From Candidatus Woesearchaeota archaeon (lineage in GTDB: Archaea; Nanobdellota; Nanobdellia; Woesearchaeales; GW2011-AR4): 64,000 nucleotides of DNA. The DNA is taken from contig JACPMR010000002.1 of the NCBI GenBank assembly GCA_016185945.1, positions 10,999-74,998 of the forward strand. Direction: 5' to 3'. Both the position numbers and the translations under genes were made by a program. The notes under the pieces are model-generated. The model ran no database searches. It was given only the letters and a program-made list of their open reading frames with translations, and was not told the origin of the DNA. Below, piece by piece: positions 1-56,729 of this stretch. How positions within the stretch are numbered: position 1 is the stretch's first letter; every line of letters begins with the position of its first letter.

Positions 1-1455
1 TTCCAGCTCTTTTTCAGTTTCAACGACATTTTTTATTTTGTACAAAAACCACTTGTCGATTTTTGTCAACTCATAAATTTTATCGATTGATATGCCTCTT
101 TTGATTGCCTCGACAATCACAAGCAGCCTTTTGTCTGTTGGAGTTTTCAGTTCTTTCTCGATGTCATTAAAAGTCAGATTGTTTCCAACAAGCCCATGAA
201 GATTTATGCCAAGCATTCTTATTGCCTTTTGAACTGTTTCCTCAAATTTCCTGCCGATTGCCATTACTTCCCCAACGCTTTTCATCTCAGAGCCAATCTC
301 AAAGCTCACATTCCTGAACTTCTGCAAGTCCCATCTCGGGATTTTGACGACAATATAGTCCAATGCCGGCTCGAAGCAGCTTTTTGTCACTTTTGTTATT
401 TGATTTTCTAATTCAATTAAAGAATATCCCAAAGCTAATTTTGCAGCTACAAATGCCAGCGGATAGCCTGTTGCCTTTGATGCAAGCGCAGAGCTTCTTG
501 ATAATCTTGCATTTACTTCTATGATTCTGTAATCCTCAGAGTAAGGGTCAAGGGCAAACTGTATATTGCATTCCCCGACAATTCCAAGATGCCTTATGAC
601 TTTGATTGAAATTTCCCTTAATTTATGGTATTCATTGTTTGTCAGAGTTTGAGATGGAGCAACAACAATGCTTTCTCCTGTATGGATTCCCATGGGATCA
701 AAGTTTTCCATGTTGCAGACGGTGATGCAGTTGTCGTAAGCATCCCTTACAACTTCATACTCAATTTCTTTCCAGCCGCCAAGGTATTTTTCAACAAGAA
801 CTTGAGAAGAGTAAGCAAAAGCGCGCTTTGCTTTGTTTATTAATTCTTCTTCATTCAATGCAGTTCCAGAGCCCTGCCCGCCTAAAGCGTAAGCAACCCT
901 TAGCATTATCGGATATTTTAGTTTTCTGGCAACATCAACTGCTTCTTCGACGCTTGTAACTGCTTCACTTTCAGGCACTTTAAGGTTTATTTCATTCAAT
1001 TTTTTGACAAATAATTCCCTATCCTCAGTATTTTTTATTGCATCAATCTGTGTGCCTAAAACTTTTACGTTGCATTTTTCAAAAATACCATTGTCTGCCA
1101 GTGCAACTCCGCAGTTCAATAACTTTTTCAACAAAATATGGGGTAACAGGAAGAAAATAGATTTTGTCTGCCATGCCTTCGCTAGATTGAATAGTAGCTA
1201 TATTTGGATTTATCAAAATACTCTTTATCCCTTCTTCCTTTAGTGCTTTTAGGCATTGAGAACCGGAGTAGTCGAATTGGCGTCTTTAGCAGATCTCGCC
1301 GGCCTCTCCGATTTTGACTTTGCCTAGATTAAATGCCTAATCTAATGTGCACCGCTGCCTAAGACAAGCACTTTTCTGGGCTTTTTTATCACATCGTTTA
1401 CCTCCGTTCTTAACTTATCAAATCTTTGTAAAAGGGCATAGTCTTTCTTTATCAT
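1..1455 (-). CDS. carB: carbamoyl-phosphate synthase large subunit (CarB), N-terminal ~480 codons; runs off window at position 1; 5' region frame-disrupted (see findings)
   Basis: ATG at 1455 overlaps carA stop (ATGA). N-terminus [36 protein letters not shown]. Then FDYSGSQ...[16 protein letters not shown]. One continuous frame from ~1118 to 1 with motifs [42 protein letters not shown]. In-frame stops in all frames between ~1262-1345 and a frame change near 1090-1118. Confidence 0.75.
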
Positions 1456-2688: not shown

Positions 2689-3615
2689 ATGACAAGTCAA
2701 ACTACTTTAAATCGGAGATATACTACTGATAGATTATATGATATAGTTTTGGCTGAAGCCAAAAATTTCCTAGTCCTTCCTGACGACGTGGCAAAATTGT
2801 GCTTGCAGGACGAACAAAGAACCAAAGCTTTGATGGATATAATATCTGAAACAACGTTGCCTGATACATTAGGAGCAGATATTGGCGCAGGTTCCGGAAT
2901 ACTAGGCTTTGCTTTTCTTAATGCGGGTGGTAGGTATTTGTTCAGTGTTGAAAAATCACCTAGATGGGCTGATTTTATTCGAAAACTCGCTTATCAATTA
3001 GGGTTTCATGAACAAATGAAAGTTTATACCGCCGATGCAACAACTGTTAGGCTGGAACCACACCCTCCAATTGATTATGTTATTGCCGAACTTGTCAGTA
3101 CTGGCTTAAGCCGTGAGCCATTGGTACAGGCTGTGAAAAATATAAGGCAGTATGCTTCTCCTAATGCAATCTATTTACCTTTATGGGTTATTTCAGAAAT
3201 TGTAGTTCATACCGGACGAAGGAGCGGAAATGGTTCAAAACCTCTTACAAAACCAAAAATATATGACGTGGTTCATATGCCTTCTGTATCGGCAACAGGA
3301 GTGGATTGCGAAGTCGAATTAGAAGCAATTAATGAAGGAAAGCCAGAGCATGTTGCTTTAGATACAACTCTTATAGGCCCAAATGGATTGCCAATAGGAA
3401 AATTTGATACACTCTGTGGCTCTTTTTCAGTTCCCTTAAGCTTCGAAGATCCTTCAGCTTCTTTGCTTGTAAAAATGGCAGGTCCATTTACTACTCCAAA
3501 GGTCTCGATTGGGCAAAGGATTATTGTTCGTATTGATTATCAATATGGTGAAGTAATAGATTGTGAATATGGCAGGCCACAAAAAACATTTCGATGGTCT
3601 TGTAGAAAGTTGTAA
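2689..3615 (+). CDS. class I SAM-dependent methyltransferase with PRMT-like architecture (MTase fold plus C-terminal beta domain)
   Basis: Motif I DIGAGSGILGFAF, post-I FSVEKSP, motif II IDYVIAELVSTGL. 308 aa, similar length and order to protein arginine methyltransferases. Opposite strand to the flanking car/arg genes. Confidence 0.5.
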   Translation: MTSQTTLNRRYTTDRLYDIVLAEAKNFLVLPDDVAKLCLQDEQRTKALMDIISETTLPDTLGADIGAGSGILGFAFLNAGGRYLFSVEKSPRWADFIRKLAYQLGFHEQMKVYTADATTVRLEPHPPIDYVIAELVSTGLSREPLVQAVKNIRQYASPNAIYLPLWVISEIVVHTGRRSGNGSKPLTKPKIYDVVHMPSVSATGVDCEVELEAINEGKPEHVALDTTLIGPNGLPIGKFDTLCGSFSVPLSFEDPSASLLVKMAGPFTTPKVSIGQRIIVRIDYQYGEVIDCEYGRPQKTFRWSCRKL

Positions 3616-3648
3616 CTAATAAAGTGCTTCTATAATTTTTAAGAAATT

Positions 3649-4983
3649 TTATTTGAAATTTGAAGGTTTTTTCTGCATATAATTGACGGCTTTTTCCGCT
3701 TCTCCAAAAGTTAATCCTATCCAATATCCGGCATACAATTCTCCATCCACACCAATAAATTTCTGGCTTCCATCTGCTATTTTTCGATATAATATTTCGG
3801 TCGCATCTCTGGAGAATTTTGTTCTCCAAAAAACTTTTGGCCCTATGCGATGTATTATATCAGTGGCTAAGCCATTTCCCCTGTAGCCATTATCTGTAAC
3901 AAGTATATCAAGATAAGGTATTCCATCCACAGCATTGAGCATTACTATACCTAATCCTTTGGCGTGTCTTTCTAAGTAAACAAATTTTTGCCCATTTACA
4001 AAATAATCATCCACAAGTTTTTGCCCAAAATTTCTTTCTGTTATATCTTTGATAACTCTTTGATTTACATTTGCTAAAGATATAGGTTCATTAATAACAT
4101 AACCCAATCTCACCAAAGTTCCCTTACCTTTATGTGTAAATAATTCAAAAGGTATATCACCTGGCTTTGTTATTTGTACACTTTTATCATCACCATTAAT
4201 CCTCATTTCCAAGCTTCTTTTAGCTTCTATTACTTTCTTTAGAGCTCCCTGAGTTACAATTCCTTGCTCTACCAATCTTTCAAAATCTCTTCTTAGTACA
4301 ATTTCATCGATTGTACGTCCTATTGCAACATCTGGATTGTCAAGAATCCCATGTGTTGAAGTCAACAAAAGGTATTTAACTGGGTCAATCGCTTCTACTA
4401 ATTTTGCGCCTACTGTATCTCCGTTAATATTAAACAGCTTAACCCCGCCAGCTGAAACTCCAATAGGAGAAAGAACAGGTATCATGGCTTGTGAAGCCAA
4501 CTGCAGTAATGGTTGTGGATTAATAAGGACAATTTCTCCATTATGGGCGCCATAGCCAGAGTCCTGTTTATCTTTTGTGATTATAACCTTTGCTTCGTAT
4601 TCTACACCAGCCACAGGAGTTCCTTTTGATGCTATAGCTTTTACCAGCCTTTGTCTCGTTTCAGAAGCAACTTCTAAAACATGTGGAAATACCTCCTCAT
4701 CAGTATATCTATCTTCCTCGGGGGTGAAAACTGTTGCTATCCCTTTTGCCTCCAATCTCTTTGTTAAAGTTTTGCCCCATCCATGAACAACAATCGGAAT
4801 TAAGCCCAGTTTTGACAGAAACGCCAAATCATTAGCTATGCTTTCGAGGTCATTTTCTAAACACTCTCCACCTATTTTCAGAACTGCGAATCTCCCAGGT
4901 TGTGCCTGTCTGAAGAGACTCCAGTAATAAAATGCTTCTTCATGTTTTATTCTTCCCAGCAAATCTACTACATTATCAATCAT
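3649..4983 (-). CDS. argA: amino-acid N-acetyltransferase (N-acetylglutamate synthase, two-domain bacterial type: amino-acid kinase domain plus GNAT)
   Basis: AAK-fold motifs VLKIGGE, VVHGWG. C-terminal GNAT motif YRGNGLATD. 444 aa. Confidence 0.7.
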   Translation of the reverse strand: MIDNVVDLLGRIKHEEAFYYWSLFRQAQPGRFAVLKIGGECLENDLESIANDLAFLSKLGLIPIVVHGWGKTLTKRLEAKGIATVFTPEEDRYTDEEVFPHVLEVASETRQRLVKAIASKGTPVAGVEYEAKVIITKDKQDSGYGAHNGEIVLINPQPLLQLASQAMIPVLSPIGVSAGGVKLFNINGDTVGAKLVEAIDPVKYLLLTSTHGILDNPDVAIGRTIDEIVLRRDFERLVEQGIVTQGALKKVIEAKRSLEMRINGDDKSVQITKPGDIPFELFTHKGKGTLVRLGYVINEPISLANVNQRVIKDITERNFGQKLVDDYFVNGQKFVYLERHAKGLGIVMLNAVDGIPYLDILVTDNGYRGNGLATDIIHRIGPKVFWRTKFSRDATEILYRKIADGSQKFIGVDGELYAGYWIGLTFGEAEKAVNYMQKKPSNFK

Positions 4984-8396: not shown

Positions 8397-8783
8397 TTAT
8401 CTATTAACTCCCCACTTGCATTGTCCAAATCCTCTGCCAGCAAATTATCAAAAAAATCTCCAGTTTTTGCAGAGTGAATTTTCGCGTTTTGTTTCATCAA
8501 ACATTACAGCATTAAATCTATTTTTAAATATGATGCCCGAACCAAAACAAAAATAAACAAAAATGTCCAAAACAAAACATTTAAATATTTGAATTGATTT
8601 TTATATTAAATGTGTAGTTTCGACACAATCAAAATATCAAAAACAAAATCAACAAACACGAGAGCGACTTTTGTATGCACAGCATGATAAAAGTGAACCG
8701 CTTGCGACAGTTCGCTTATATATTTACAATGGATAGGCGAAGGGGTTAAATGCCCCTGAGCAGTATCTTTTGCCGAAGGCAGT

Positions 8784-12795: not shown

Positions 12796-13056
12796 ATGCA
12801 TACTGAATTCGAGACATTCAGGGAAAATGTGGATTCTTGGATAAAGCAGATTAGAAGGGAGTTTACAGAGTTTTCTGACTTACCCAACATAGTAAATGAA
12901 AATACTGACAACATACAACACAATTATGAGTTAATCTATGAGTTAAAGGATGAGATTGAGGAATTGAAGCAGGAGATAAATGCCTTGAAATTAATCCAGA
13001 TAATAAGCCTGAAGCAGAAAATGGGGCAGAAAGCAGAAGAAACCCAGCAAACTTAA
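12796..13056 (+). CDS. small coiled-coil protein
   Basis: 86 aa with heptad-like ELKDEIEELKQEINALK. Confidence 0.4.
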   Translation: MHTEFETFRENVDSWIKQIRREFTEFSDLPNIVNENTDNIQHNYELIYELKDEIEELKQEINALKLIQIISLKQKMGQKAEETQQT

Positions 13057-13086
13057 AATATTGGAGTTCTTTTAAATCTTTAAATT

Positions 13087-13255
13087 TTCAATCCGTCTGC
13101 GACGCATTTTACTGCGCGTCGGCATTCTGATGTTGAGGAAGCATTCTTTTGTGCTCCTCCTCCGCGCCTATTTATTAAATAATTTCAGGCAAACTTTCCT
13201 GAGCTGGGTTCCCATTCCACCCTTGCTTTTGTTGGGAAGCGACGTTGATTGAATT
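13087..13255 (+). repeat. dispersed GC-rich element copy A (subfamily 1)
   Basis: TTCAATCCG, hairpin, conserved blocks cggcattctgatgtt / gtgctcctcc / cctatttatt / ttcctgagctgggttccca / tgggaagcgacgtt. Confidence 0.6.
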
Positions 13256-13301
13256 ATTTTTTTATGTTATAATTTTGAAAGAGTTAGTATTTTGTTGATT
13301 T

Positions 13302-13610
13302 TTAATCCAATTCACTAACTATTCTTTTCAATGCGTCGTCAACTGCAACAAATAGATTTCTATCTATAGCTTCTGAAGCATAAACTTTCCCATTGTCGAC
13401 AATCTTGACATGCACTTCATATTTTTCGCTTTTCTCTCTTTGGTGTATGGGCTTTAAAGTTACATGCAAAGACTCCATTTTTTCACATAATTCAGAAATT
13501 CTTTTGGCATGGTTGCCTATAATTTTCTTCAAAACTATCATTGAAGAGCTATCAATATCTCTGAAGCCAGTCAACTGGATATTGCCGCCAAGTCTTAAAT
13601 CGTCTTCCAT
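13302..13610 (-). CDS. ribosome hibernation-promoting factor / RaiA (S30AE) family-like protein
   Basis: 102 aa. The C-terminal half YEVHVKIVDNGKVYASEAIDRNLFVAVDDALKRIVSEL parallels E. coli HPF ATLHVNGGEIHASAEGQDMYAAIDGLIDKLARQL. The N-terminal NIQLTG parallels LNITGNN. Confidence 0.45.
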   Translation of the reverse strand: MEDDLRLGGNIQLTGFRDIDSSSMIVLKKIIGNHAKRISELCEKMESLHVTLKPIHQREKSEKYEVHVKIVDNGKVYASEAIDRNLFVAVDDALKRIVSELD

Positions 13611-14081
13611 GAGGCGCTATCTAATTTCAGGATTATAAAAAGATTTTGGTTTTGAAAATAAAAAAAGTTATTCAGAAGCCGGGTTTGCTTCCTTACTTTA
13701 GCCATTATTCCTTTCTATATAGAAGAAAAATAGATTTAAATCCTATTGATGATTTACAAAGTGTATTGTTCTAATTACGCAAGGTCAAAGGCTGCCTTCA
13801 GGGCAATCCAGCCAATATTTCGTACATTTTACCTATGGGAGCATAAGATGTTATAAAGGGAATAATAAAGTTAGAGTTATTCCAACTGCAGAATTAATTC
13901 AATTAGCTTCAAATCCAGATACATTAAAGCAATCGCTTGAAGAAAGATTATTGTTAAAAGGAGAGGAATTGGGGATAGTGGCTGATACTATAAGAGAAAT
14001 GTATGTGGATGGCTCATTGATTGCATATTTATAACTATTCTTGTATAAATATTTATATTATAGACATCATTACTTAGTAAT

Positions 14082-14378
14082 ATGAACATTGCCGATTTAG
14101 TTAAAGAACTTTTCCCAAGTCATGACTTAGACAGGTTAGAGAGCGCTAAAAATCCACGACAATTGTTCTTGAACTACATGGCTAATCTCCCAAAACATGC
14201 GATTAGGGGCGGAGCGCTTGGTGCCGTAATTGGCCCAGTTGTTATTCCATTGATATATGACTTCTTTGGTGTGGACTTATCAGGTGATCCTACTTTTGAC
14301 AGAGCAGGAGGCGCTTTTTGGGTTGCATTAATTGATATGGCACAATATGTTGCACGTGCATATAGATTTGCTAAATAA
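14082..14378 (+). CDS. hypothetical small protein with a Gly/Ala-rich hydrophobic segment
   Basis: 98-aa ORF. Confidence 0.35.
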   Translation: MNIADLVKELFPSHDLDRLESAKNPRQLFLNYMANLPKHAIRGGALGAVIGPVVIPLIYDFFGVDLSGDPTFDRAGGAFWVALIDMAQYVARAYRFAK

Positions 14379-19926: not shown

Positions 19927-20140
19927 TTATTTTAAATTCCAATCCGTTGCTTCGCAACATTAGTTACTGCTCGGCTTTCGCTCCCCTGCCAGTGACATGC
20001 GAGGCTCGCGAAGAGACTCGCTCGCCAGTCACCCGCTCAAGCCTCGCCTATTTATTTAATAAATTCAGGCAAACATTCCTGAGCTGGGTTCCCATATCAC
20101 CTAGGTAGATGCTGGGAAGCGACGTTTTTGAAATATTTTT
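19927..20140 (+). repeat. element copy B (subfamily-1 3' part, with a ~50-nt internal GC hairpin module)
   Basis: ttccaatccg GTTGC-TTCG-GCAAC. Internal module ccagtgacatgcgaggctcgcgaagagactcgctcgccagtcac. Confidence 0.6.
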
Positions 20141-20228
20141 ATTATTGTTTTTTTTTGAAATTTTTTAATGCGGTTTTTGAAAAATTCGATTTTTTATTTA
20201 TTGAATTATTTTATTTAATTATTGATTT

Positions 20229-22323: not shown

Positions 22324-22465
22324 TTTCAATCCGGCTTTGCCAAATTCTAGTGCTCGGCAAAACTTCCCTTTCAATCAGTTTTGCCTCGCCTATATATTCA
22401 ATAAAAAATAAAAAGCGGTTTACTTTCTTCACGCTTACATCCAAAAGTCGCTCTCGTTTTTTTGA
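22324..22465 (+). repeat. element copy C (subfamily 2)
   Basis: ttcaatccg, then ctcGGCAAAACT...AGTTTTGCCtcgcctatatattcaataaaa...aaagtcgctctcg. Confidence 0.6.
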
Positions 22466-27554: not shown

Positions 27555-28304
27555 ATGCAACAGCCAATGCCGCATCAATTGATGGGATACGACAGGGCAA
27601 TCACAATGTTCAGCCCTGATGGAAGATTACTTCAAGTAGAGTATGCCAAAAAGACTGTAAGACAAGGCTCTACAGCCATAGGAATGGTATGCTCTGACGG
27701 GGTTCTGCTGGTTGCCGACAAGAGAGTTGTTGACTCATTAGTTGTCCCGGAATCTGTTGAGAAAATATGGCAGATTGACGAGCATATAGGAGCTGCTGCT
27801 TCAGGGATTTTGAGCGATGCCAGAGTGCTGATTGACAGGGCTCAATTAAGAGCGCAGCAAAACAGGGTAACTTATGATTCTGAAATCGATACTTTGACGA
27901 TTGTCAAGGACATGTGCGACTTAAAGCAGATTTGCACCCAAAGCGGCGGCTTGAGGCCATTTGGTGTTTCTGTTCTGGTTGCAGGCATCGACAACCATAC
28001 CCCCAAGCTCTTTGAGACAGACCCGATAGGAATTTACTTTCAATACAGGGCAACGGCAATAGGCGAGGGCGAAATTGAGGTAGAGGAAATATTGCACAAC
28101 GAATACAAGCAGGACTCTACAATAGAAGAGGGCTTGAAATTGTCGTTAAAAGCCCTGAAAAAGGTGCTCGGAGAGAATTTTAACATAGAGAGAATCGATG
28201 CAGCATACATCAACTCGGCAGATAAAAAATTCAGAAGATTCGCAAAACAAAGATTAGAGAAAGTAGCGTCAGAGTTAAAGGATGAGAAAAAAACAAAGAA
28301 ATGA
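27555..28304 (+). CDS. psmA: proteasome alpha subunit
   Basis: YDRAITMFSPDGRLLQVEYA signature. Confidence 0.92.
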   Translation: MQQPMPHQLMGYDRAITMFSPDGRLLQVEYAKKTVRQGSTAIGMVCSDGVLLVADKRVVDSLVVPESVEKIWQIDEHIGAAASGILSDARVLIDRAQLRAQQNRVTYDSEIDTLTIVKDMCDLKQICTQSGGLRPFGVSVLVAGIDNHTPKLFETDPIGIYFQYRATAIGEGEIEVEEILHNEYKQDSTIEEGLKLSLKALKKVLGENFNIERIDAAYINSADKKFRRFAKQRLEKVASELKDEKKTKK

Positions 28305-28312
28305 CGGGATAG

Positions 28313-29017
28313 ATGATGGTTACAGTTGATCAGGCGATAATTGCAAGGTTAAAGGCGCATGGGCAAAGCTTTGAGATTCTTGTTGACTGCAACAATGCGC
28401 TTGCCCTGAGGGACGGCAGGGAAATGGACATGCGCGACATTCTTGCAGCCATGCAGATTTTCTCTGATGCCAAAAAGGGCTTGGTTGCTTCTGAAAACGC
28501 AATGCGGCAGATTTTCGGCACAAGCGAAGTTGATGATGTTGCAAGGCAGATTATACAGAAAGGAGAGATACAATTAACGCAGGAGTACAGGGAAAAATTA
28601 AGGGAGGAAAAAAGAAAGCAAATCATCGCAATAATTCATAGAAACGGCGTTGACCCAAAAACGCATTTGCCGCATCCTCCGCAAAGGATTGAGAACGCAT
28701 TTGAGGAAGCAAAGCTCCATGTTGACGAGTTCAGGTCCGTGCAGGAGCAGGTGCAGGAAGCGTTAAAGAAGCTAAGGCCGATTTTGCCGATTAAATTTGA
28801 GGTCAAGGAGATCGCAATCAAGATTCCGCCGGAGTATGCCCCAAAATGCTATGCCCCTGCAAAGCAATTCGGCACGATATTGAGAGAAGAGTGGCAAAGC
28901 AATGGCTACTGGGTTGCTGTTGTCGAGCTGCCAGGCGGCATGGAAAATGACCTTTACGACAGGTTAAACAAGATATGCCATGGAAATGTGGAAAGCAAGG
29001 TTTTGAAGATTAAGTGA
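28313..29017 (+). CDS. sdo1: ribosome maturation protein SBDS/Sdo1
   Basis: SBDS-family sequence. Conserved superoperon position. Confidence 0.8.
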   Translation: MMVTVDQAIIARLKAHGQSFEILVDCNNALALRDGREMDMRDILAAMQIFSDAKKGLVASENAMRQIFGTSEVDDVARQIIQKGEIQLTQEYREKLREEKRKQIIAIIHRNGVDPKTHLPHPPQRIENAFEEAKLHVDEFRSVQEQVQEALKKLRPILPIKFEVKEIAIKIPPEYAPKCYAPAKQFGTILREEWQSNGYWVAVVELPGGMENDLYDRLNKICHGNVESKVLKIK

Positions 29018-29112
29018 TTGAAAATTTAAGAATATGCAATATCAACGAAAAATAATATAAAAAGTAATATTCAAACGACAAAAACAATAAAAATTCAAAA
29101 TATCAAGCATAG

Positions 29113-29823
29113 GTGAAAACAAAAATGTCAAAAATAATTGCAAAGGACAAGGAAATAGCAGTGCCTGGAGAGACACTGGCTAAAGGGATGGAAGTTCTGC
29201 CGGGAATCGGCACTTGCAGGGACGGAGAAAATATAATGGCTAACCGCCTTGGATTAGTCATGATTGAAGGAAGGACAATAAAGCTTATCCCATTATCGGG
29301 AAGGTATATACCGAAAACAGGAGACACAATAATATGCAAAGTCGTTGATGTCAGCTTCAACGGCTGGCGACTTGACACAAACTCTGCCTATTCAGCGATG
29401 CTGTCGATGAAAGATGCGACTTCTGACTTCATTGCAAGAGGGGCTAACTTAACACAATATTATGACTTAGGAGATTATGTCGTATGTAAAATTGTCAATG
29501 TCACGAGCCAGAAACTCATTGATGTGACAATGAAAGGGCCTGGATTAAGGAAGCTGAAGGGCGGCAGGATAATTGAAGTTAATCCTCACAAAGTGCCTCG
29601 TATAATAGGAAAGCAGGGCTCAATGGTTGTGATGATAAAAGATGCAACAAGGTGCAACATTGTTGTCGGGCAAAATGGCTTGATATGGATTGACGGCGAG
29701 CCATTGAATGAGCTGCTTGCCATCCAAACAATCAGAAAGATTGAAAGGGAAAGCCATTTGAGCGGCTTGACTGACAAGATAAAGGAATTTTTGGAAAAAA
29801 ATGGCGGGAAATTAACAGGGTGA
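29113..29823 (+). CDS. rrp4: exosome complex RNA-binding subunit Rrp4 (S1 plus KH)
   Basis: S1 domain followed by KH (IIGKQGSMVVMI). Confidence 0.85.
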   Translation: MKTKMSKIIAKDKEIAVPGETLAKGMEVLPGIGTCRDGENIMANRLGLVMIEGRTIKLIPLSGRYIPKTGDTIICKVVDVSFNGWRLDTNSAYSAMLSMKDATSDFIARGANLTQYYDLGDYVVCKIVNVTSQKLIDVTMKGPGLRKLKGGRIIEVNPHKVPRIIGKQGSMVVMIKDATRCNIVVGQNGLIWIDGEPLNELLAIQTIRKIERESHLSGLTDKIKEFLEKNGGKLTG

Positions 29824-29830
29824 TATTAAC

Positions 29831-30541
29831 ATGGCTTACAAGCAAAGAATAGACGGAAGGGGCTTTGACGAGACAAGGCCTATAGAAGCGAAAGTTGGAG
29901 TGATTCAAAGGGCAGACGGCTCTGCAATGTTCAAGATAGGCAACACATGGGCATATGCTGCAGTGTACGGACCGAGAAACCTGCATCCTAAGTTTTTGCA
30001 GGACCCCCAAAGAGGAATTTTAAGATGCAACTATAACATGATGCCTTTTTCGAGCTCTGGCGAAAGGGTAAGGCCAGGCGGCTCAAGAAGATCAAAGGAA
30101 ATATCCCTTGTCACGGAAAAGGCGCTATTGCCTGTGCTTGACTTGGAGGAATTTCCTAATTCTGTGGTTGACGTCTTTATTGAATTGCCCCAGACAGAGG
30201 CTGGCTCAAGATGCGCTGGCATATGCGCTGCGTCAATGGCGCTGGCAGATGCAGGATTGAACATGAAGGATTTGGTTTGTGCAGTTTCTTTAGGAAGGGT
30301 TGACGACAAATTGCTTATTGACCTGGATTATTCGGAGGAGAGCTATAAAGACGGGCCAGTTGCAGACATTCCAATTGCAATGATGCCGAATTCCAGCAAG
30401 GTTACATTGCTGCAGATGGACGGCGAAATAAGCAAGGAAGAGCTGATGGAGCTGCTTGAAAAGAGCAGGAAAGTTTTGATGGATATTTACGAAGTCCAGA
30501 AAAGGGCATTGAAGGAAAAATATCACGAGGTTGAGGTATGA
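29831..30541 (+). CDS. rrp41: exosome complex exonuclease Rrp41 (RNase PH-like)
   Basis: RNase PH fold (RADGSAMFKIGNT). Confidence 0.88.
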   Translation: MAYKQRIDGRGFDETRPIEAKVGVIQRADGSAMFKIGNTWAYAAVYGPRNLHPKFLQDPQRGILRCNYNMMPFSSSGERVRPGGSRRSKEISLVTEKALLPVLDLEEFPNSVVDVFIELPQTEAGSRCAGICAASMALADAGLNMKDLVCAVSLGRVDDKLLIDLDYSEESYKDGPVADIPIAMMPNSSKVTLLQMDGEISKEELMELLEKSRKVLMDIYEVQKRALKEKYHEVEV

Positions 30542-31314
30542 TGCATAGGGAATTGAGAAATCACATAATCGGGCTTCTTAATGCTGACATAAGGCTTGAC
30601 GGAAGAAAGCTTACAGAGTACAGGAAGCCGATTGAAGTTGAATATGGAGTTGTAAAGACAGCAGAGGGCTCTGCAAGAGTCAAGATTGGCGAAACCGATG
30701 TCATTGTTGGAGTCAAACTTGATGTTGGCGAGCCGTACCCTGACACTCCTGATGAAGGCACAATTATTGTGGGAGCAGAATTATTGCCATTATCCAATCC
30801 AGAGTTTGAGCTTGGCCCGCCCGGGATTCAAGCGATTGAACTTGCAAGGGTTGTTGACAGGGGCATTCGGGAAAGCAAGGCGCTTGACTTCAAGAAGCTC
30901 TGCATCACCCCAAGCGAGAAGATATGGATGGTAATAATTGACATATGCCCGATAAATGATGCAGGCAATTTGTTTGATGCAGCGTCACTGGCTGCTCTTG
31001 CCGCCTTAAAGGACACAAAATATCCTGCATTTGACGGTGAGAAAATAGACTACAAGGCAAAGACGGACAAAAAGCTTGGGCTGGAAAAGATGCCGATAGC
31101 CGTGACTGTAATAAAAATCGGCAGCAAGTTCATTGTGGATCCTGACATAGAGGAGGAGAAGGCAATTGATGCAAGGCTGACGGTTTCCTCCATAGAAGAC
31201 GGCACTTTGTGCGCCATGCAGAAAGGCGGCGATTTTCCATTGTCAATCGAGGACATAGACAAGATGCTTGACATCGGGATTGAGAAGGCAAAGGAGTTGA
31301 GGAAGTATTTGTGA
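30538..31314 (+). CDS. rrp42: exosome complex subunit Rrp42
   Basis: RNase PH-like, inactive-type. Overlapping start with rrp41. Confidence 0.85.
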   Translation: MMHRELRNHIIGLLNADIRLDGRKLTEYRKPIEVEYGVVKTAEGSARVKIGETDVIVGVKLDVGEPYPDTPDEGTIIVGAELLPLSNPEFELGPPGIQAIELARVVDRGIRESKALDFKKLCITPSEKIWMVIIDICPINDAGNLFDAASLAALAALKDTKYPAFDGEKIDYKAKTDKKLGLEKMPIAVTVIKIGSKFIVDPDIEEEKAIDARLTVSSIEDGTLCAMQKGGDFPLSIEDIDKMLDIGIEKAKELRKYL

Positions 31315-32943: not shown

Positions 32944-33146
32944 TTCAATCCGTTGCTTCGCAACAATATTTAGTGCTCACCCTCACTTTTCTGCCAGTGG
33001 CATGCGAGGCTCGCGAAGAGACTCGCTCGCCAGTCACCCGTTCGGGCTCGCCTATCATTCAATAACAAAATCAAAAGCTGGTCTCCTTCATCGCTTGGGG
33101 AATCTAAAGGAAGCTCTCGTGATTGTTTTGAATTAGTTTATTGTTA
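32944..33146 (+). repeat. element copy D (subfamily-2 3' end plus the internal module)
   Basis: ttcaatccg GTTGC-TTCG-GCAAC. Same internal module as B with gtggc in place of gtgac. Confidence 0.6.
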
Positions 33147-37629: not shown

Positions 37630-37872
37630 TCAAAAAAGAGAGAACTAGCAAAAATCATTCATATTTAAATTCGCTTCTTTTTTCAATGTCATTTTTGTAT
37701 TAATGTTTCTCCGCATTCGGGGCAATACCGCTCCTCTGAACCAATTTCTGCTCCGCATAAAGGGCATTCAAGCGCTTGTTTCATAATAAATTATTTTATA
37801 AAACAAGTATTTAAAGTTAGCGATTAAAATTCCAAAAATATACTTAAACTACATAAAATTTCAACAATAAAA

Positions 37873-38043
37873 ATATTTCAAACAACTTCGCTTCCCAGCA
37901 TCTGCAAAGGTTAGTGGGAGCCCAGCTCAGGAATTTTTGCCTATCCATTTCAAATATATAGGCGCCGAGGGGGAGCACAAAATAATGCAACTTTAACATC
38001 TAAATGCCGAGGCGCACTAGAATTCGCCGAAGGCGAATTGAAA
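37873..38043 (-). repeat. element copy E (subfamily 1, reverse orientation)
   Basis: Reverse complement reads ttcaattcg CGCC-TTCG-GCG ... cctatatatttg ... ttcctgagctgggctccca ... tgggaagcgaagtt. Confidence 0.6.
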
Positions 38044-38473
38044 TTTTAAGATTATAAAAGATTAAAAACAAAATCAATAAGTTGATAGAGCAGATTGAAT
38101 CAAAGATTTAAAATCATAAGAAAATCTTAAAATAAATTTATAAAAAAGCCACCCCCAACACCAAGCTGGGGGCAACCACACACAAAGAGGTTTTGAGTCA
38201 AAAGAGGGTTACTGACTCTTTGCCTATGCTTATAAATTATTCATCACCTTTAACTTATCACCTCCGATTTTTTAATCGCCTTCCAAACCAATGAAAATAA
38301 AAAGCACCTCATAAAGAGGTGCCACACACTTGGAGATGTTTTGATGATATCTAGGCAATAGCTTAAACGAGGGTTTATAAATACCCTGTGAAAGGCTGTT
38401 AGAGAGAAAACCTACAGAACTATCTTTCATAAGCTTTTTAAATGGATGTTTTTAAGCTGCCTGTGTGGGTTAA

Positions 38474-41204: not shown

Positions 41205-41352
41205 TTTTCAATCCGTCCCTTCGGGACAATGTTTACTGCTCGGCAAAACTTTCCCTTTCAATCAGTTTTGCCTCGCCTATAAATCCAATAAAACGTCAAA
41301 AGCTGGTCTCCTTTATTATGATTACTTTCAAAGGACGCTCTCGTGATTGTTT
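41205..41352 (+). repeat. element copy F (subfamily 2)
   Basis: ttcaatccg GTCCC-TTCG-GGAC, then the same core as C. Confidence 0.6.
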
Positions 41353-42315: not shown

Positions 42316-42457
42316 ATTTCAATCCGCTCACTTCGTTCGCAAACTTTACTGCTCGGCGAAATTTGCCTGCCACTAAATTTCGCCTCGCCCATATATGCAC
42401 TAAAATCATCAAAAGCGGTTTACTTTAATCACTTGCTACATATAAAAGTCGCTCTTG
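42316..42457 (+). repeat. element copy G (subfamily 2, compensatory variant)
   Basis: ttcaatccg. Core hairpin GGCGAAATTT/AAATTTCGCC in place of GGCAAAACT/AGTTTTGCC. Confidence 0.55.
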
Positions 42458-42710
42458 GGATTGAATTATTTTGTTTTTATTGATTTAATTATTATTGAAT
42501 TTTAAAATTGTTTTTCTTTACACCTTGCGGTGTTAGAATGGCTAATTTGTATTAGCACAAAAGAATGGTATTTTGCTGTATTTATAAATATTATGTCCAA
42601 ATTAAAAAATCAAAGATTTTATAAATTTCTCCACATTATCATTAATGAGCAATTAAACTAACTACATTTATTTTCCATATAGAAATAAAACAACTGTATT
42701 TGATGTAAAA

Positions 42711-50976: not shown

Positions 50977-51075
50977 TTCAATCCGTCGTGCTTCGCACGA
51001 CAATATCTTGGCGCCTCGGCATTCTGATGTGAAGGCAACATTTATTTGTGCTCCTCCTCGGCGCCTATACATTTA
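50977..51075 (+). repeat. element copy H (subfamily 1, 3'-truncated)
   Basis: ttcaatccg GTCGTGC-TTCG-GCACGAC, then cggcattctgatgtg...gtgctcctcctcggcgcctatacattt. Confidence 0.55.
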
Positions 51076-51079
51076 ATCC

Positions 51080-52028: not shown

Positions 52029-54122
52029 TCATGGACTGCCATTCTGTGTTAAAGTTCCTTTCAAAAATACGTATCCAGTCTCATTCACAAAAGCAACTAG
52101 ATTGCTTGAATTGTCCTTTATCCTGAAGTCATTTTTATTTGTGTCAGAGGTTAAAGTACCTTGATTTTCAAATAAAGTTCCATCAATGTACATGCTTCCA
52201 TTGTTTTCTATGATTAAGACATCATTTAGATTGTTTCTTATTTTAAAGGCAAAGTTGTCTGTTGCCTGGAAGTTGGAGTTTTGTTCCAAATTTCCTTTAA
52301 TCACAACATTGCCTGCATCTCCAAACCATGCTATGTTGCTTCCGCTTGAGTTTTTGATGAGGAATTTGTTTATGTCTGGAAGAGAGGTTGAGTTAACTTT
52401 AAAAGTAAAATTAATATCAGCCCAGTCACTCATAGAATTATTATCAAAAGCCAAACAATTCCAAATATAATTTCCATTGGGGATGTTATTAACTATAAAA
52501 GTTTCATAGTCAGAAGTTCCTGTTATATTTTTTGTTTCATCAGCTGCCCATACACCAGAAATATTATGGTATAAAGTAATATTCTTCAGATTCTCATTGA
52601 AATCAGTTGCTGAACAATTGAATATTAGGTTTCCTGTTGTGCTTATGTTGTTGTTTAATGGACTTACTAACGTTACGATTGGTGGTACTGGATTGGATAT
52701 TGTGAATGTTCCAGTGGTGTCATTTCCAGTATTTATACCATCTGTAGCTAGGATTTTTATTTTATATTCATGTGAATTGATAAAGTTAGATGAATTCAAT
52801 AATAAAGTAGTGTTTGGGTAATCAATTTCTATGGTTGATAAACTACTACCATTATCACTTGATATTAATATTGCATATTGGATTGTATCATTGTCTAAGT
52901 CGGAAGCGTTCCATGTTATATTAAAGGATTTGTCGAAGACTTCACTGCCTGTTGGGAAGGTTATTGTGATATTGGGTGTGTTTTGGGACACATTTATCTC
53001 AGATTTTATTACTGTTTCATTTTCTTTTATCATAATCGTGGTCACGTTATCTGTATATGGTAAGACAAAAGCGAAAGCTGTAACGTTTGTTTCGATTGTA
53101 TCACCACCAATCTCCGTTATCGTAAAATCAACATCAAATGTGTGATTGTAAAAAAGAGTACCATTAGATTCGAGAATAATAGAAAAATTACCCGATGAAG
53201 TCTGGTTTTCAATGCTCTGCTCATCTAAAATGTAAGAAATATCTGTAATTAAAGTTCCATTTTTAAGTATGGTTCCACTAAACAAAATTGCTTTCTCGAC
53301 ATTCAATAATTCAGAAGGTTCTTCTAGTTGTTCAAGTAAATGAATGTAAGTTAAGTTATCAATCCATCTATTATTTTGATCGCCTGCATTTCCCATAAAA
53401 TTAAAAAGATTGATTGTGTCATTTTGTGCTTTCCAAGGAACTAGTTTTCCTATAGTACTTGTATCACAACCTGTACTTTCATCTAAACAAGAAGCATCTA
53501 AAGAATTATCATTATCTAAATCGCCATTTGGACAAAAACCAGATATGAAAATAAATCTTGTATCTTGATTTTCCCAAACAGTATCGTTATATTCATCACA
53601 TATGCCAAAAGTGTGTGCCAATTCATGTGCACTTCCATGTCTAAATCCTTCTTCGATAATGACTGCTTTTATGTTAGCAGTTTTTAATGCATTATTTTTA
53701 TAACTTATATATGTATACCCTTTTGTATTATTTTGTCCATGGTTAAAAAACCATCCTTGAGGGACTATTCCAACTACTCTATCTGTTTTATTACTAAGTC
53801 TTCCCTCCTTGTATAATTCTTTAAGGAGATCGAACTTTTCAATTGTACTTAATGTACTTCCTATATTTGAACTAGAAATTCCACGTCTAACATTAGTGAT
53901 AAGTCCTGTATCAGAAAGTGGATAAGTCCTATTTATGAATTGTATACTATTCCCCAATCTCTGATCAAATTCAGAAGATTTTTCATCTATTGCCACAAAA
54001 TCTATTTTTAGTTGTCTTGTTTCTATTACATTTACATGGGTAGTTTTAGAAATAGCTACAACATTATTGATTACTATCATAAATATTATTACTTTTAATA
54101 TAAGTTTGATTATTTTTTTCAT
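52029..54122 (-). CDS. secreted zinc metalloprotease (HExxH) with many N-glycosylation sequons and a C-terminal cassette shared with 56730-58742
   Basis: Signal peptide. GSAHELAHTFGICDEY. Dozens of NxS/T. C-terminal ~110 aa near-identical to the other protein. Confidence 0.7.
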   Translation of the reverse strand: MKKIIKLILKVIIFMIVINNVVAISKTTHVNVIETRQLKIDFVAIDEKSSEFDQRLGNSIQFINRTYPLSDTGLITNVRRGISSSNIGSTLSTIEKFDLLKELYKEGRLSNKTDRVVGIVPQGWFFNHGQNNTKGYTYISYKNNALKTANIKAVIIEEGFRHGSAHELAHTFGICDEYNDTVWENQDTRFIFISGFCPNGDLDNDNSLDASCLDESTGCDTSTIGKLVPWKAQNDTINLFNFMGNAGDQNNRWIDNLTYIHLLEQLEEPSELLNVEKAILFSGTILKNGTLITDISYILDEQSIENQTSSGNFSIILESNGTLFYNHTFDVDFTITEIGGDTIETNVTAFAFVLPYTDNVTTIMIKENETVIKSEINVSQNTPNITITFPTGSEVFDKSFNITWNASDLDNDTIQYAILISSDNGSSLSTIEIDYPNTTLLLNSSNFINSHEYKIKILATDGINTGNDTTGTFTISNPVPPIVTLVSPLNNNISTTGNLIFNCSATDFNENLKNITLYHNISGVWAADETKNITGTSDYETFIVNNIPNGNYIWNCLAFDNNSMSDWADINFTFKVNSTSLPDINKFLIKNSSGSNIAWFGDAGNVVIKGNLEQNSNFQATDNFAFKIRNNLNDVLIIENNGSMYIDGTLFENQGTLTSDTNKNDFRIKDNSSNLVAFVNETGYVFLKGTLTQNGSP

Positions 54123-54478
54123 CTTATTCTAATAAATTTTCTATAAATAATTGTCAGCAAACAAGACACTAAATAATAATATGCTAACAAAACAATAAAA
54201 ACTAATATAAGTGAAGATGTGAAACCATATCTTTCTATATCTATGCTAATATTTGTTATATCTGTAATAAAAATTAAAGGATAAATTGGGCCAGTAACTA
54301 AAAAAGACGGTTTTGATACAATAACGTCTCCAACCTGAGTGTAATAAGCAAAAGGTACTATCCCAAAGAATCCTAAAGTAGCTATAATGATAAATATTAA
54401 GGTGGTTAATATTTTCCATTTCGTCGGTCTAAAAAACTCAACTAAAAACTCATAAATCTTAAATTGTTTTTTTTCCAT
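54119..54478 (-). CDS. small membrane protein
   Basis: 119 aa with 3 hydrophobic segments. Confidence 0.4.
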   Translation of the reverse strand: MEKKQFKIYEFLVEFFRPTKWKILTTLIFIIIATLGFFGIVPFAYYTQVGDVIVSKPSFLVTGPIYPLIFITDITNISIDIERYGFTSSLILVFIVLLAYYYLVSCLLTIIYRKFIRIR

Positions 54479-54551
54479 TTTAGTTCACCTTGACCTTGCA
54501 AGTTGCTACAGTTTCACTCATTTTCACCACCTTTTTTATTTTTTATTTAAA

Positions 54552-56558
54552 TTAAGTAACTTCCACTCTAATCTCTTTATTACTTCCAGCAACATCAGGA
54601 ACAAAATTTAAATCAATATTTTTTTCTTGTCCAGCATTTATAGTTTCTATTGTAGAATTTTTTAGGGTATTTTCAAAAAACAAACTAATAGTAATATTTT
54701 TATTATCTATAAAATTGTTTTTTATAACAGATCTTACTAAAGTAGTTTTACCTTTAACCAAATCGACATCTTTTATGACTTGAATAGGAATGATCTCTTG
54801 AATAGTGAATCCTATTGTTAAATTTGATTCATACCATATTACTTTATCATCATTTTGTGATGCGCTTAACACATCTGTATCATTATCTTTATCGATATCT
54901 ATTGCAAATACAGACCATGCACCATCTGCAGTGATTGATATATTATGTGGTATAAAATTTGGAGGAACACTACCATTGTTCTCGTACCAAGCTATTTTGT
55001 CATCAAATTCAGAAGCACTTAATACATCAATATCATTATCCTTGTCTAAATCTATTGCAAATACTGATCTTGCTCCATTTGCATCAGTTGCTATAATTCT
55101 AGTAGTCCAATTTGGAATTGAACTACCATTATTTTCGTACCATGCTATTTTATTATCATCAACTGATACACTAACTACATCAATATCATTATCACCATCG
55201 ATGTCTATAGCAAATACCGAAGATGCACCTGCAGCAGATGTTGTTATATTATGAACTGTCCAATTCGGTGGAGAACTGCCATTATTTTCATACCAAGTAA
55301 TTCTGTTATCATCCAATGAAGCACTTACCACGTCTATATCATTATCTTTATCTATATCTTTCGCATATACAGACCATGCATTGTTAACATTTGTTGAGAT
55401 TATGTGTGTGGTCCAATTTAGAGGTGATCCTCCTTTATTCTCGTACCATTCTATCCTATCATTAAAACTTGATTCACTAACCACATCAATGTCGCTATCA
55501 TTGTCTATGTCTATTGCATATAGGCCTCCAGGGTCTTTAACAGAACTTATAATATGGCTTACCCAATTTATTGGTGAACCCCCTATATTTTCATACCATT
55601 CAATTCTGTCAAGACCATCTAGAGTGGCGATTACATCAGTATCATTATCTTTATCTAAATCTATCGCAAACACGGCAATAGGTCTGTCGGCATCTGTCTT
55701 TATTGTATAATTTGTCCAGCTTGGAGTGGATCCACCATTATTTTGATACCATTCTATTTTATTGTCAAAATTGACTGAGCTAATAACATCAATATCTTGG
55801 TCATTATCTAGGTCAGCGGCATAGACAGATAATGCTCCATTGGCTGTAACACTTATATTTCGTGCTGTCCACCCGATTACCGGATCAATAAACAATTCTT
55901 CTAATCCTTCAAGTTCTTTATTTACCTCTAAATTAATATAATTTTTATTATTGAAAGAATAAACAGAAACAGAGTAATTTAAATCAGTGATATCCTTAAA
56001 ATTATAATAATTATTTCCAAATGTTAATGTATGTCCTGTTAAAGAACTTTTATTTAAACCTGGAAACTTTCCTTTTGTAACTTCAAACGCTTTAAAGTAA
56101 ATAGGTTTTTTGCTAACAACGTATTTTGTTCTATTCCAAACAACAAAATCAGAATCTATTTCATACAGAATATTTAATTTTGTATTCTTGTTGGTATTTA
56201 ATAAATTTCTAAGAATATAACTCTGTTTTATTGGTCTTTCATCCACATTAAAGAAACTGGTATCAATTTCTTCATAAATGCTTTCAACCTCTATATTTTG
56301 GGATTTAAACTTATTTCTTATTTTTTTTTCAGAAAAAGGAAGAGTTTCTTTATCAAATGCTTCAACAGTGATATTATCATAATCAATGCCAAATCCTATC
56401 TGCTTAAATCTTTTAAGCTGATTAAACTTATCAACAGCTACTATATCATCTATGATTGGTTTTGTTTGATTACCATTTAAACTAACAGCGCTTACAATAA
56501 CAGAGAAAGAAATAACTATAATAAGGAAAGCTATCACCTGCTTTTTGTTTAACTCCAC
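54552..56558 (-). CDS. secreted FG-GAP/VCBS-repeat beta-propeller protein
   Basis: Signal peptide. About 7 repeats of DxDxDxDIDVxS...D.KIxWYENxGGSxxxW. Confidence 0.7.
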   Translation of the reverse strand: MELNKKQVIAFLIIVISFSVIVSAVSLNGNQTKPIIDDIVAVDKFNQLKRFKQIGFGIDYDNITVEAFDKETLPFSEKKIRNKFKSQNIEVESIYEEIDTSFFNVDERPIKQSYILRNLLNTNKNTKLNILYEIDSDFVVWNRTKYVVSKKPIYFKAFEVTKGKFPGLNKSSLTGHTLTFGNNYYNFKDITDLNYSVSVYSFNNKNYINLEVNKELEGLEELFIDPVIGWTARNISVTANGALSVYAADLDNDQDIDVISSVNFDNKIEWYQNNGGSTPSWTNYTIKTDADRPIAVFAIDLDKDNDTDVIATLDGLDRIEWYENIGGSPINWVSHIISSVKDPGGLYAIDIDNDSDIDVVSESSFNDRIEWYENKGGSPLNWTTHIISTNVNNAWSVYAKDIDKDNDIDVVSASLDDNRITWYENNGSSPPNWTVHNITTSAAGASSVFAIDIDGDNDIDVVSVSVDDNKIAWYENNGSSIPNWTTRIIATDANGARSVFAIDLDKDNDIDVLSASEFDDKIAWYENNGSVPPNFIPHNISITADGAWSVFAIDIDKDNDTDVLSASQNDDKVIWYESNLTIGFTIQEIIPIQVIKDVDLVKGKTTLVRSVIKNNFIDNKNITISLFFENTLKNSTIETINAGQEKNIDLNFVPDVAGSNKEIRVEVT

Positions 56559-56729
56559 ACTAACACCCCCAAACTGATTTTTATGATAAAGTACAACTCC
56601 TATTTATATTTTTTCATTTTCTCGTCTATAAATCTTGTATAATCCATTCTATATAAAATATATTTCTTCAATTCTTAAAACTTAATCGAGTTAATAAATT
56701 TTTAACAATAATTCATGTTACATAGTACT

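Follow-up and report, generated by a model that had tools for sequence, protein, structure and literature searches.

A stand-alone archaeal-type HPF/RaiA-like protein of Woesearchaeota as a probable ribosome hibernation factor

HibA, which combines a CBS module with an HPF/RaiA domain, was found by cryo-electron microscopy (cryo-EM) in ribosomes of stressed Pyrococcus abyssi (Madru et al., Nat Commun 2026; PMC13324472). In the same study, the genome set of which has 122 Woesearchaeales entries, HibA was reported from 47% of the genomes of Archaea, and stand-alone 'HPF/RaiA-like' proteins from 8%, 'mostly DPANN and Nitrososphaerales' (PMC13324472). A preprint on AHA of Haloferax volcanii counted 926 stand-alone HPF homologues, spread over 814 species and 12 phyla of Archaea, and found that archaeal and bacterial HPFs form two separate clades with no intermixing (PMC12934967), and a third group has described the same CBS-HPF fusion in 42% of archaeal species; overall, the fused form is present in about 45% of genomes. 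Here we characterise a gene from a 64,000-nucleotide (nt) stretch of a Candidatus Woesearchaeota archaeon genome (contig JACPMR010000002.1; the whole stretch is referred to as the window). We consider it probable that its product is a ribosome hibernation factor, HPF/RaiA-like, stand-alone and of archaeal type, and that it is native to Woesearchaeota. A preliminary description of the locus, made from the sequence alone, had recognised the resemblance to HPF and had taken S30AE hibernation factors to be foreign to the archaeal ribosome toolkit, a premise that the published distributions overturn.

Cryo-EM has located the HPF domain of both HibA and AHA in the archaeal 30S decoding channel (PMC13324472, PMC12934967). 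HibA carries two insertions in this domain: three residues between the first strand and the first helix touch the archaeal uS19 tail, and seven residues in the next hairpin (two in the deletion mutant, i.e. a net five) touch uS12 and the decoding bases (PMC13324472). For the archaeal HPF domain as a whole, an ancient transfer from Bacteria to Archaea is favoured (PMC13324472).

A conserved gene with an HPF/RaiA-type fold

The open reading frame (ORF), the position and sequence of which agree with the preliminary description (Table 1), is a real gene and lies far beyond a chance ORF, as judged from its many relatives and from the low level of non-synonymous change set against saturated synonymous change. 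A word-indexed search returned 311 clusters at 90% identity; among the matches listed, the proteins are 67-82% identical to the window protein and nearly all are 98-112 amino acids (aa) long. Compared with 12 orthologues, non-synonymous differences amount to 0.09-0.18 per site, whereas synonymous sites have reached saturation (proportion of synonymous differences, pS, 0.72-0.98), and the ratio of non-synonymous to synonymous rates (dN/dS) is ~0.04 for the sole unsaturated orthologue pair. An identical protein has been deposited under the accession MBI2653200.1 with the title 'hypothetical protein HYX02_00160 [Candidatus Woesearchaeota archaeon]', an annotation that, on the sequence comparisons given below, is corrected to HPF/RaiA-like. 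The host genome is archaeal, in keeping with the preliminary description, since the window contains an exosome-type operon (proteasome-alpha / SBDS / Rrp4 / Rrp41 / Rrp42), eL31, eS19 and a Cbf5-type pseudouridine synthase.

The protein has an HPF/RaiA (S30AE)-type fold, and we call it HPF/RaiA-like because several independent lines, namely PF02482, hhalign, structure prediction with Foldseek, and the conserved residues, concur. It matches PF02482 (Ribosomal_S30AE) over residues 35-100 (25.6 bits, with the gathering threshold at 23.7; E 2.1e-5), and Pfam returned no other domain in it. Just under half of its divergent relatives (52 of 109, 27-63% identical to the window protein) individually match the same family, with a best E of 1.5e-7, and no other family recurs among the 109. 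When compared by hhalign with an alignment of bacterial RaiA/HPF proteins, window residues 29-102 correspond to E. coli HPF 18-93 (91% probability, E 9.7e-7), and residues 67-102 fall opposite HPF 51-86 in the very register that the preliminary description had proposed by eye for the C-terminal half. In searches of the PDB, a narrow family profile gave a non-significant HPF match only (E 0.59) and a broad one was required, which recovered the E. coli, Vibrio, Thermus and chloroplast HPF chains at E 0.008-0.05.

The structure prediction is in good agreement with these searches. An AlphaFold2 (AF2) model based on 32 homologues (predicted local distance difference test score, pLDDT, 90; predicted template-modelling score, pTM, 0.82) has its secondary-structure elements in the order expected for HPF/RaiA, and the top 30 Foldseek matches in the PDB are all HPF, RaiA, pY or RafH structures (best E 2e-5). 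The S30AE assignment and the fold put forward in the preliminary description are thus both upheld. Neither HibA nor AHA was among the PDB matches of the fold and profile searches.

Identity to bacterial HPFs is only 10-19%. Where the bacterial set shows no variation (R17, K26, L27, D69-M70-Y71, A73 and K80 in E. coli HPF numbering), the family has in the alignment the conserved residues K28, K/R37, a hydrophobic one at 38, N85-L86-F87, A89 and K/R96. At the start of helix 2, N85-L86-F87-V-A89-V-D91 aligns with D69-M70-Y71-A-A73-I-D75, which is the bacterial D-M/L-Y-x-A-I-D motif, while K28, R37 and R96 of the window protein stand opposite E. coli R17, K26 and K80, the replacements being conservative and not identical. 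By profile threshold, helix-2 motif and basic residues, the protein belongs to the HPF/RaiA superfamily (PF02482/COG1544); it falls outside the double-stranded RNA-binding domains (dsRBDs).

Against this common background, the family has elements of its own. The extra N-terminal strand is optional, being absent from some family members and from a divergent paralogue described below. The pair G15-F16 at the end of beta1 is the only one in the family that is invariant or near-invariant, and the linker that leads from beta1 to alpha1 appears to exceed that of E. coli HPF by ~3 residues (alignment offsets of 8 at beta1 and of 11 at alpha1), in agreement with the AF2 boundaries of the window protein and of a likewise-made E. 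coli RaiA model, although the size is uncertain, as the MAFFT register differs at the N-terminus and gives a 10-residue insertion rather than ~3. The five-residue extension of the beta2-beta3 hairpin at residues 55-59, as read from the alignments, is firm, and H56 within it is conserved in 81% of family members. Relative to bacterial sequences there are therefore extra residues at both HibA insertion sites, where the HibA positions are those given in PMC13324472 and come from no direct alignment; the match would be one of position, with similar sizes (~3 and 5), and not a demonstrated homology.

Family distribution, synteny and promoter

An HMMER scan of 1.84 billion representatives yielded 456 clusters at 50% identity, 217 of them at E <= 1e-10. 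The best 150 of the 456 clusters are all 66-151 aa long, which leaves no room for a CBS module, and many members are named 'ribosome-associated translation inhibitor RaiA' by the Joint Genome Institute (JGI). One member, P0295, is attributed to a Flavobacteriales metagenome-assembled genome (MAG), probably through a binning error. A split or truncated HibA was also considered and rejected: no CBS ORF lies nearby (none in the 470 nt upstream of the gene) and the listed family members are ~100 aa long. The window holds no second HPF-like domain.

Scanning GTDB species genomes, we located 51 loci. Thirty-two of these are titled Woesearchaeota, Nanoarchaeota or Nanoarchaeia and two only 'archaeon'; the remaining 17 come from third-party assemblies titled 'uncultured Methanosarcinales', a label that looks wrong because these records share, in most cases, the Woesearchaeota synteny. 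Among the records titled 'uncultured Methanosarcinales archaeon' are L001, L006, L009, L016-L019, L021, L024, L028-L030, L033, L038, L049 and L051, and most of these records show 47-80% identity. In 29 of the 51 loci the divergent upstream neighbour is a phosphoglucomutase/phosphomannomutase gene, and in 28 the convergent downstream neighbour encodes an 86-aa coiled-coil protein. Two loci in one MAG (L008 and L010) were examined as possible paralogues and dismissed as such: both adjoin the same phosphoglucomutase gene, which makes strain variants the probable explanation. A Nanoarchaeota MAG (locus L027) does have a second, divergent HPF/RaiA-like paralogue, at 3380-3718 on the minus strand, directly beside and divergent from the main copy at 4001-4306 on the plus strand; it matches the family profile with an hmmsearch E of 1.3e-13, has no extra N-terminal strand and carries G-I in place of the invariant G-F.

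The stretch directly upstream of the gene reads as a conserved archaeal promoter with a B recognition element (BRE) and a TATA box (Table 1), and a leaderless transcript is predicted from it: the distance from TATA box to ATG implies a leaderless or nearly leaderless mRNA. In most closer orthologous loci the motif CAAAATCTTTTTATA(A/T) keeps the same spacing to the start codon, and the full motif is found CAAAATC-TTTTTATA(A/T) at a fixed distance upstream of the ATG in most closer relatives. More distant loci have TTTAAA/TTTATA-type boxes, and a GGTGA Shine-Dalgarno sequence is present in some.

Table 1. Features of the HPF/RaiA-like gene, its product and the surrounding window (window positions unless residues are stated)
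Feature	Position	Strand	Remarks
HPF/RaiA-like coding sequence, stop codon included	13302..13610	minus	ATG start; 102 aa; stand-alone
Archaeal-type core promoter (predicted)	13633..13648	minus	coordinates read from sequence; function assigned by archaeal promoter geometry
BRE-like CAAAATC	13642-13648	minus	directly before TATA box on gene strand
TATA box TTTTTATAA	13633-13641	minus	ends 22 nt before ATG
G15 codon	13566-13568	minus	directly 5' of codons 16-25 on gene strand
Codons 16-25 (FRDIDSSSMI)	13536..13565	minus	end of beta1, then linker to alpha1
Codons 55-59 (IHQRE)	13434..13448	minus	lengthening of beta2-beta3 hairpin; gap in hhalign and HMMER
AF2 elements, N-terminal part	residues 4-8; 11-14; 21-41; 45-56		extra N-terminal strand; beta1; alpha1; beta2
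AF2 elements, C-terminal part	residues 62-72; 75-83; 86-101		beta3; beta4; alpha2
86-aa predicted coiled-coil protein	12796-13056	plus	convergent to HPF-like gene
Repeat element A copies	13068-13280; 19940-20160; 37846-38061; 51011-51077		~180-210 nt; third copy inverted, fourth partial
Related repeat family	22341-22457; 32946-33091; 41209-41344; 42340-42480; 8636-8703		same 5' module
Archaeal exosome 'superoperon'	27555-31314		proteasome alpha, SBDS, Rrp4, Rrp41, Rrp42

Dispersed repeats and other features of the window

The preliminary description had placed a repeat, element A, directly downstream of the gene. The copy is real, but it is unrelated to the gene, since none of the 51 orthologous loci contains the repeat. 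Elements of this kind are dispersed and intergenic, at about one copy per 7 kb. They have in common a 5' module made of CAATCCG, a hairpin with a TTCG-like loop and ACTGC; their ends resemble short terminal inverted repeats (TTCAATC...GATTGAA), and the internal hairpin shows compensatory changes between copies. The repeat has no Rfam match, nor did Rfam give a match across the window or around the HPF-like gene, and no tRNA genes were found in the window. Sequencing runs from groundwater samples of the source project (SRR121134xx) carry the HPF-like gene, and short-read assemblies of the organism break where the repeat lies, ~84 nt beyond the stop codon of that gene. The element behaves like a lineage-specific, miniature inverted-repeat transposable element (MITE)-like insertion that is not part of the locus, and in its make-up it looks like a MITE or a structured-RNA element. 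A role as a functional 3' element of the HPF-like gene was rejected on account of its absence from 51 of 51 orthologous loci and of the fact that the convergent genes abut in several relatives, where the HPF-like gene and the gene for the 86-aa protein are ~2-60 nt apart (in others the gap is much larger).

The 86-aa protein is more conserved than its neighbours, the listed identities being 69-90% and most of them above 80%; it matches no significant Pfam family and gave only a weak V-SNARE-like match. On the other side of the HPF-like gene, the 470-nt upstream spacer and an ORF of 98 aa at 14082-14378 have no counterpart in the 51 related loci, and in many closer relatives a gap of only ~100-130 nt separates the HPF-like gene from the start of the phosphoglucomutase gene. 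The region 13611-14378 looks like another lineage-specific insertion, within which 13951-14034 could encode a short peptide.

Farther away, the window encodes aSBDS (28313-29017), which is expected, as this protein is universal in Archaea; aSBDS on idle Pyrococcus ribosomes has been described as a possible parallel route to hibernation (PMC13324472). An ORF of 668 aa at 54552-56558 on the minus strand contains 6-7 tandem repeats of 153 nt, the units of ~51 aa being 60-73% identical. It lies among several ORFs of very large size (52029-61573), where the GC content of the window is lowest; these probably encode repetitive surface proteins.

Predicted function and relation to known hibernation factors

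By analogy with bacterial HPF/RaiA and with the HPF domain of HibA and AHA, the window protein would bind the 30S subunit between head and body, with its two helices facing the 16S rRNA and its bulk lying across the path of the mRNA and the tRNA positions of the A and P sites, and idle ribosomes would thereby be kept silent and shielded from nucleases until growth returns. As for the HibA insertions, the beta2-beta3 hairpin is predicted to contact uS12 and the decoding bases, and the G-F junction the uS19 tail. Having no CBS module, the protein would not sense adenosine monophosphate (AMP) as HibA does, and having no long-HPF dimerisation domain it would not form ribosome dimers by itself. The absence of both suggests a minimal RaiA-type clamp that would be controlled through its abundance, as supplied by a strong, conserved, leaderless archaeal promoter.

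A number of observations weigh against this assignment, in addition to the differing alignment registers at the N-terminus. The sequence signal is weak: the margin of PF02482 above its gathering threshold is small, a single-sequence phmmer search of the PDB returned no HPF match, and the only NCBIfam match, TIGR00741, reaches 19.9 bits against an equivalog cutoff of 40.9, so that the protein does not qualify as matching bacterial HPF/YfiA at the level of orthologues. Its isoelectric point is mildly acidic (6.1), as are those of E. coli HPF (6.5) and RaiA (5.95). The fold is related to that of dsRBDs, and another RNA partner is conceivable. Placement with the archaeal branch draws on insertion sites, distribution and the literature, and not on a tree. 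For the whole class of stand-alone archaeal HPF/RaiA-like proteins, function is assigned by analogy, and it is on this footing that we infer ribosome binding, the binding site and a physiological role in hibernation for the window protein.

The preliminary description saw in the gene a laterally acquired and unusual copy, i.e. a bacterial HPF gene recently added to the ribosome toolkit of an archaeon. It could be said for such a transfer that the best-scoring curated models, PF02482 and TIGR00741, draw mainly on proteins of bacteria and plastids, and that an origin in Bacteria is the one favoured for the whole archaeal HPF domain (PMC13324472), but that event would be ancient. A recent bacterial import is very unlikely in view of the size of the family, its synteny, the archaeal promoter, the HibA-type insertion sites and the ordinary GC content. 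Identity to bacterial HPFs is low, and the relatives of the protein form an isolated group of 456 clusters, the best 150 of which are without exception short. The gene is syntenic in dozens of Woesearchaeota and Nanoarchaeota species, and among close species the protein is 75-80% identical, about as conserved as the products of neighbouring housekeeping genes. A BRE/TATA promoter of archaeal type precedes it, the GC content around it is unremarkable, and its extra residues occupy positions regarded as 'archaeal-specific' in HibA; the separation of archaeal and bacterial HPF clades (PMC12934967) points the same way, and for stand-alone archaeal forms both studies report a position next to or inside the archaeal clade of HibA C-terminal and HPF-like domains (PMC13324472, PMC12934967). 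We conclude that the gene is most probably native to Woesearchaeota and belongs to a large, vertically conserved Woesearchaeota/Nanoarchaeota family: it is an expected member of a recently described archaeal family and not an odd bacterial import.

Granted that the gene is native, its product might still serve a purpose other than hibernation. A protein with an HPF/dsRBD-like fold could bind double-stranded or structured RNA or assist ribosome assembly, for which the kinship with dsRBDs mentioned above would speak; we regard this as unlikely, given that HPF structures score clearly above dsRBDs, that their alignment spans the whole domain including beta1, which dsRBDs lack (84-91 against ~68 residues), that the HPF-typical helix-2 motif and basic helix positions are kept, and that the two family-specific segments lie at the uS19 and uS12 contact sites of HibA (PMC13324472). 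Distinctly unlikely, in our view, is a constitutive, stoichiometric ribosome-associated protein of Woesearchaeota that is not induced by stress. Plastid PSRP1/pY was first taken for a ribosomal protein of just this sort, the very strong conservation of both the protein and its near-consensus promoter suggests high expression, and DPANN cells probably spend much of their life at low translational activity; yet wherever this domain has been characterised, it blocks the sites of tRNA and mRNA, and a ribosome in that state could not be translating (PMC12934967, PMC13324472).

Within the preferred assignment as a hibernation factor, a more far-reaching possibility can be entertained, though we hold it to be rather unlikely: that the stand-alone DPANN family is a distinct minimal archaeal hibernation factor and not a degenerate HibA left after loss of the CBS module. 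The family-specific, most conserved elements, which are the invariant G15-F16, the beta2-beta3 hairpin with its His and the extra N-terminal strand where present, would then give enough affinity for the archaeal 30S subunit without an anchor on the large subunit, and the stand-alone family might represent the unfused ancestral state. Were this true, it would bear on the question of whether HPF dates to the last universal common ancestor (LUCA) or came from Bacteria.

If the assignment is right, strong selection maintains in the reduced genomes of DPANN archaea the most compact form known of a hibernation domain that Bacteria and Archaea have in common, and its retention would make sense for episymbionts, which must survive host-free periods. 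As HPF-type domains in Archaea have been established since 2025-2026, the finding will not surprise the specialist and its consequences are modest. A highly conserved protein of 102 aa would be a convenient candidate for work on archaeal ribosome binding and for cryo-EM.

How does the protein compare with hibernation factors already described? From bacterial short HPF (YhbH), RaiA/YfiA/protein Y and plastid PSRP1/pY it differs in its extra N-terminal strand, its invariant G-F with the longer linker and its longer hairpin, and it is without the RaiA-type C-terminal tail. Its target would be an archaeal ribosome with eS28 and an extended uS19 tail, and an RMF partner is not expected, although no search for RMF was made. 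With the long HPF of Firmicutes, Actinobacteria and Thermus it has the fold of the N-terminal domain in common; the C-terminal dimerisation domain PF16321 is absent, the protein ending one residue past alpha2, so dimers of the 100S type are not predicted.

The archaeal factors are closer. HibA/Hib/AHA share with the window protein the HPF/RaiA-type domain and presumably also the site in the 30S decoding channel, and the residues that each has in excess of bacterial proteins, at the beta1-alpha1 junction and in the beta2-beta3 hairpin, appear to correspond in position. They differ in their 4xCBS module (~270 aa), the absence of which from the window protein implies that it neither binds AMP nor touches the large subunit (peptidyl-transferase centre, uL5, L1 stalk) and that it does not adopt multiple conformations. 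A published pattern of mutual exclusion predicts that genomes with this gene lack HibA, the Sri/Dri/CBS-module families, aRDF and Balon. At the C-terminus, HibA makes contacts through a long element (PMC13324472) and the terminal helix of AHA is longer than that of E. coli HPF (PMC12934967), whereas alpha2 of the window protein stops at residue 101. From the stand-alone archaeal HPF/RaiA-like proteins (PMC13324472), the 'canonical HPF homologs' of PMC12934967, there is no substantive difference: the window protein is encoded in an archaeal genome and consists of an HPF/RaiA-fold domain alone, and its DPANN host and its distribution fit this class.
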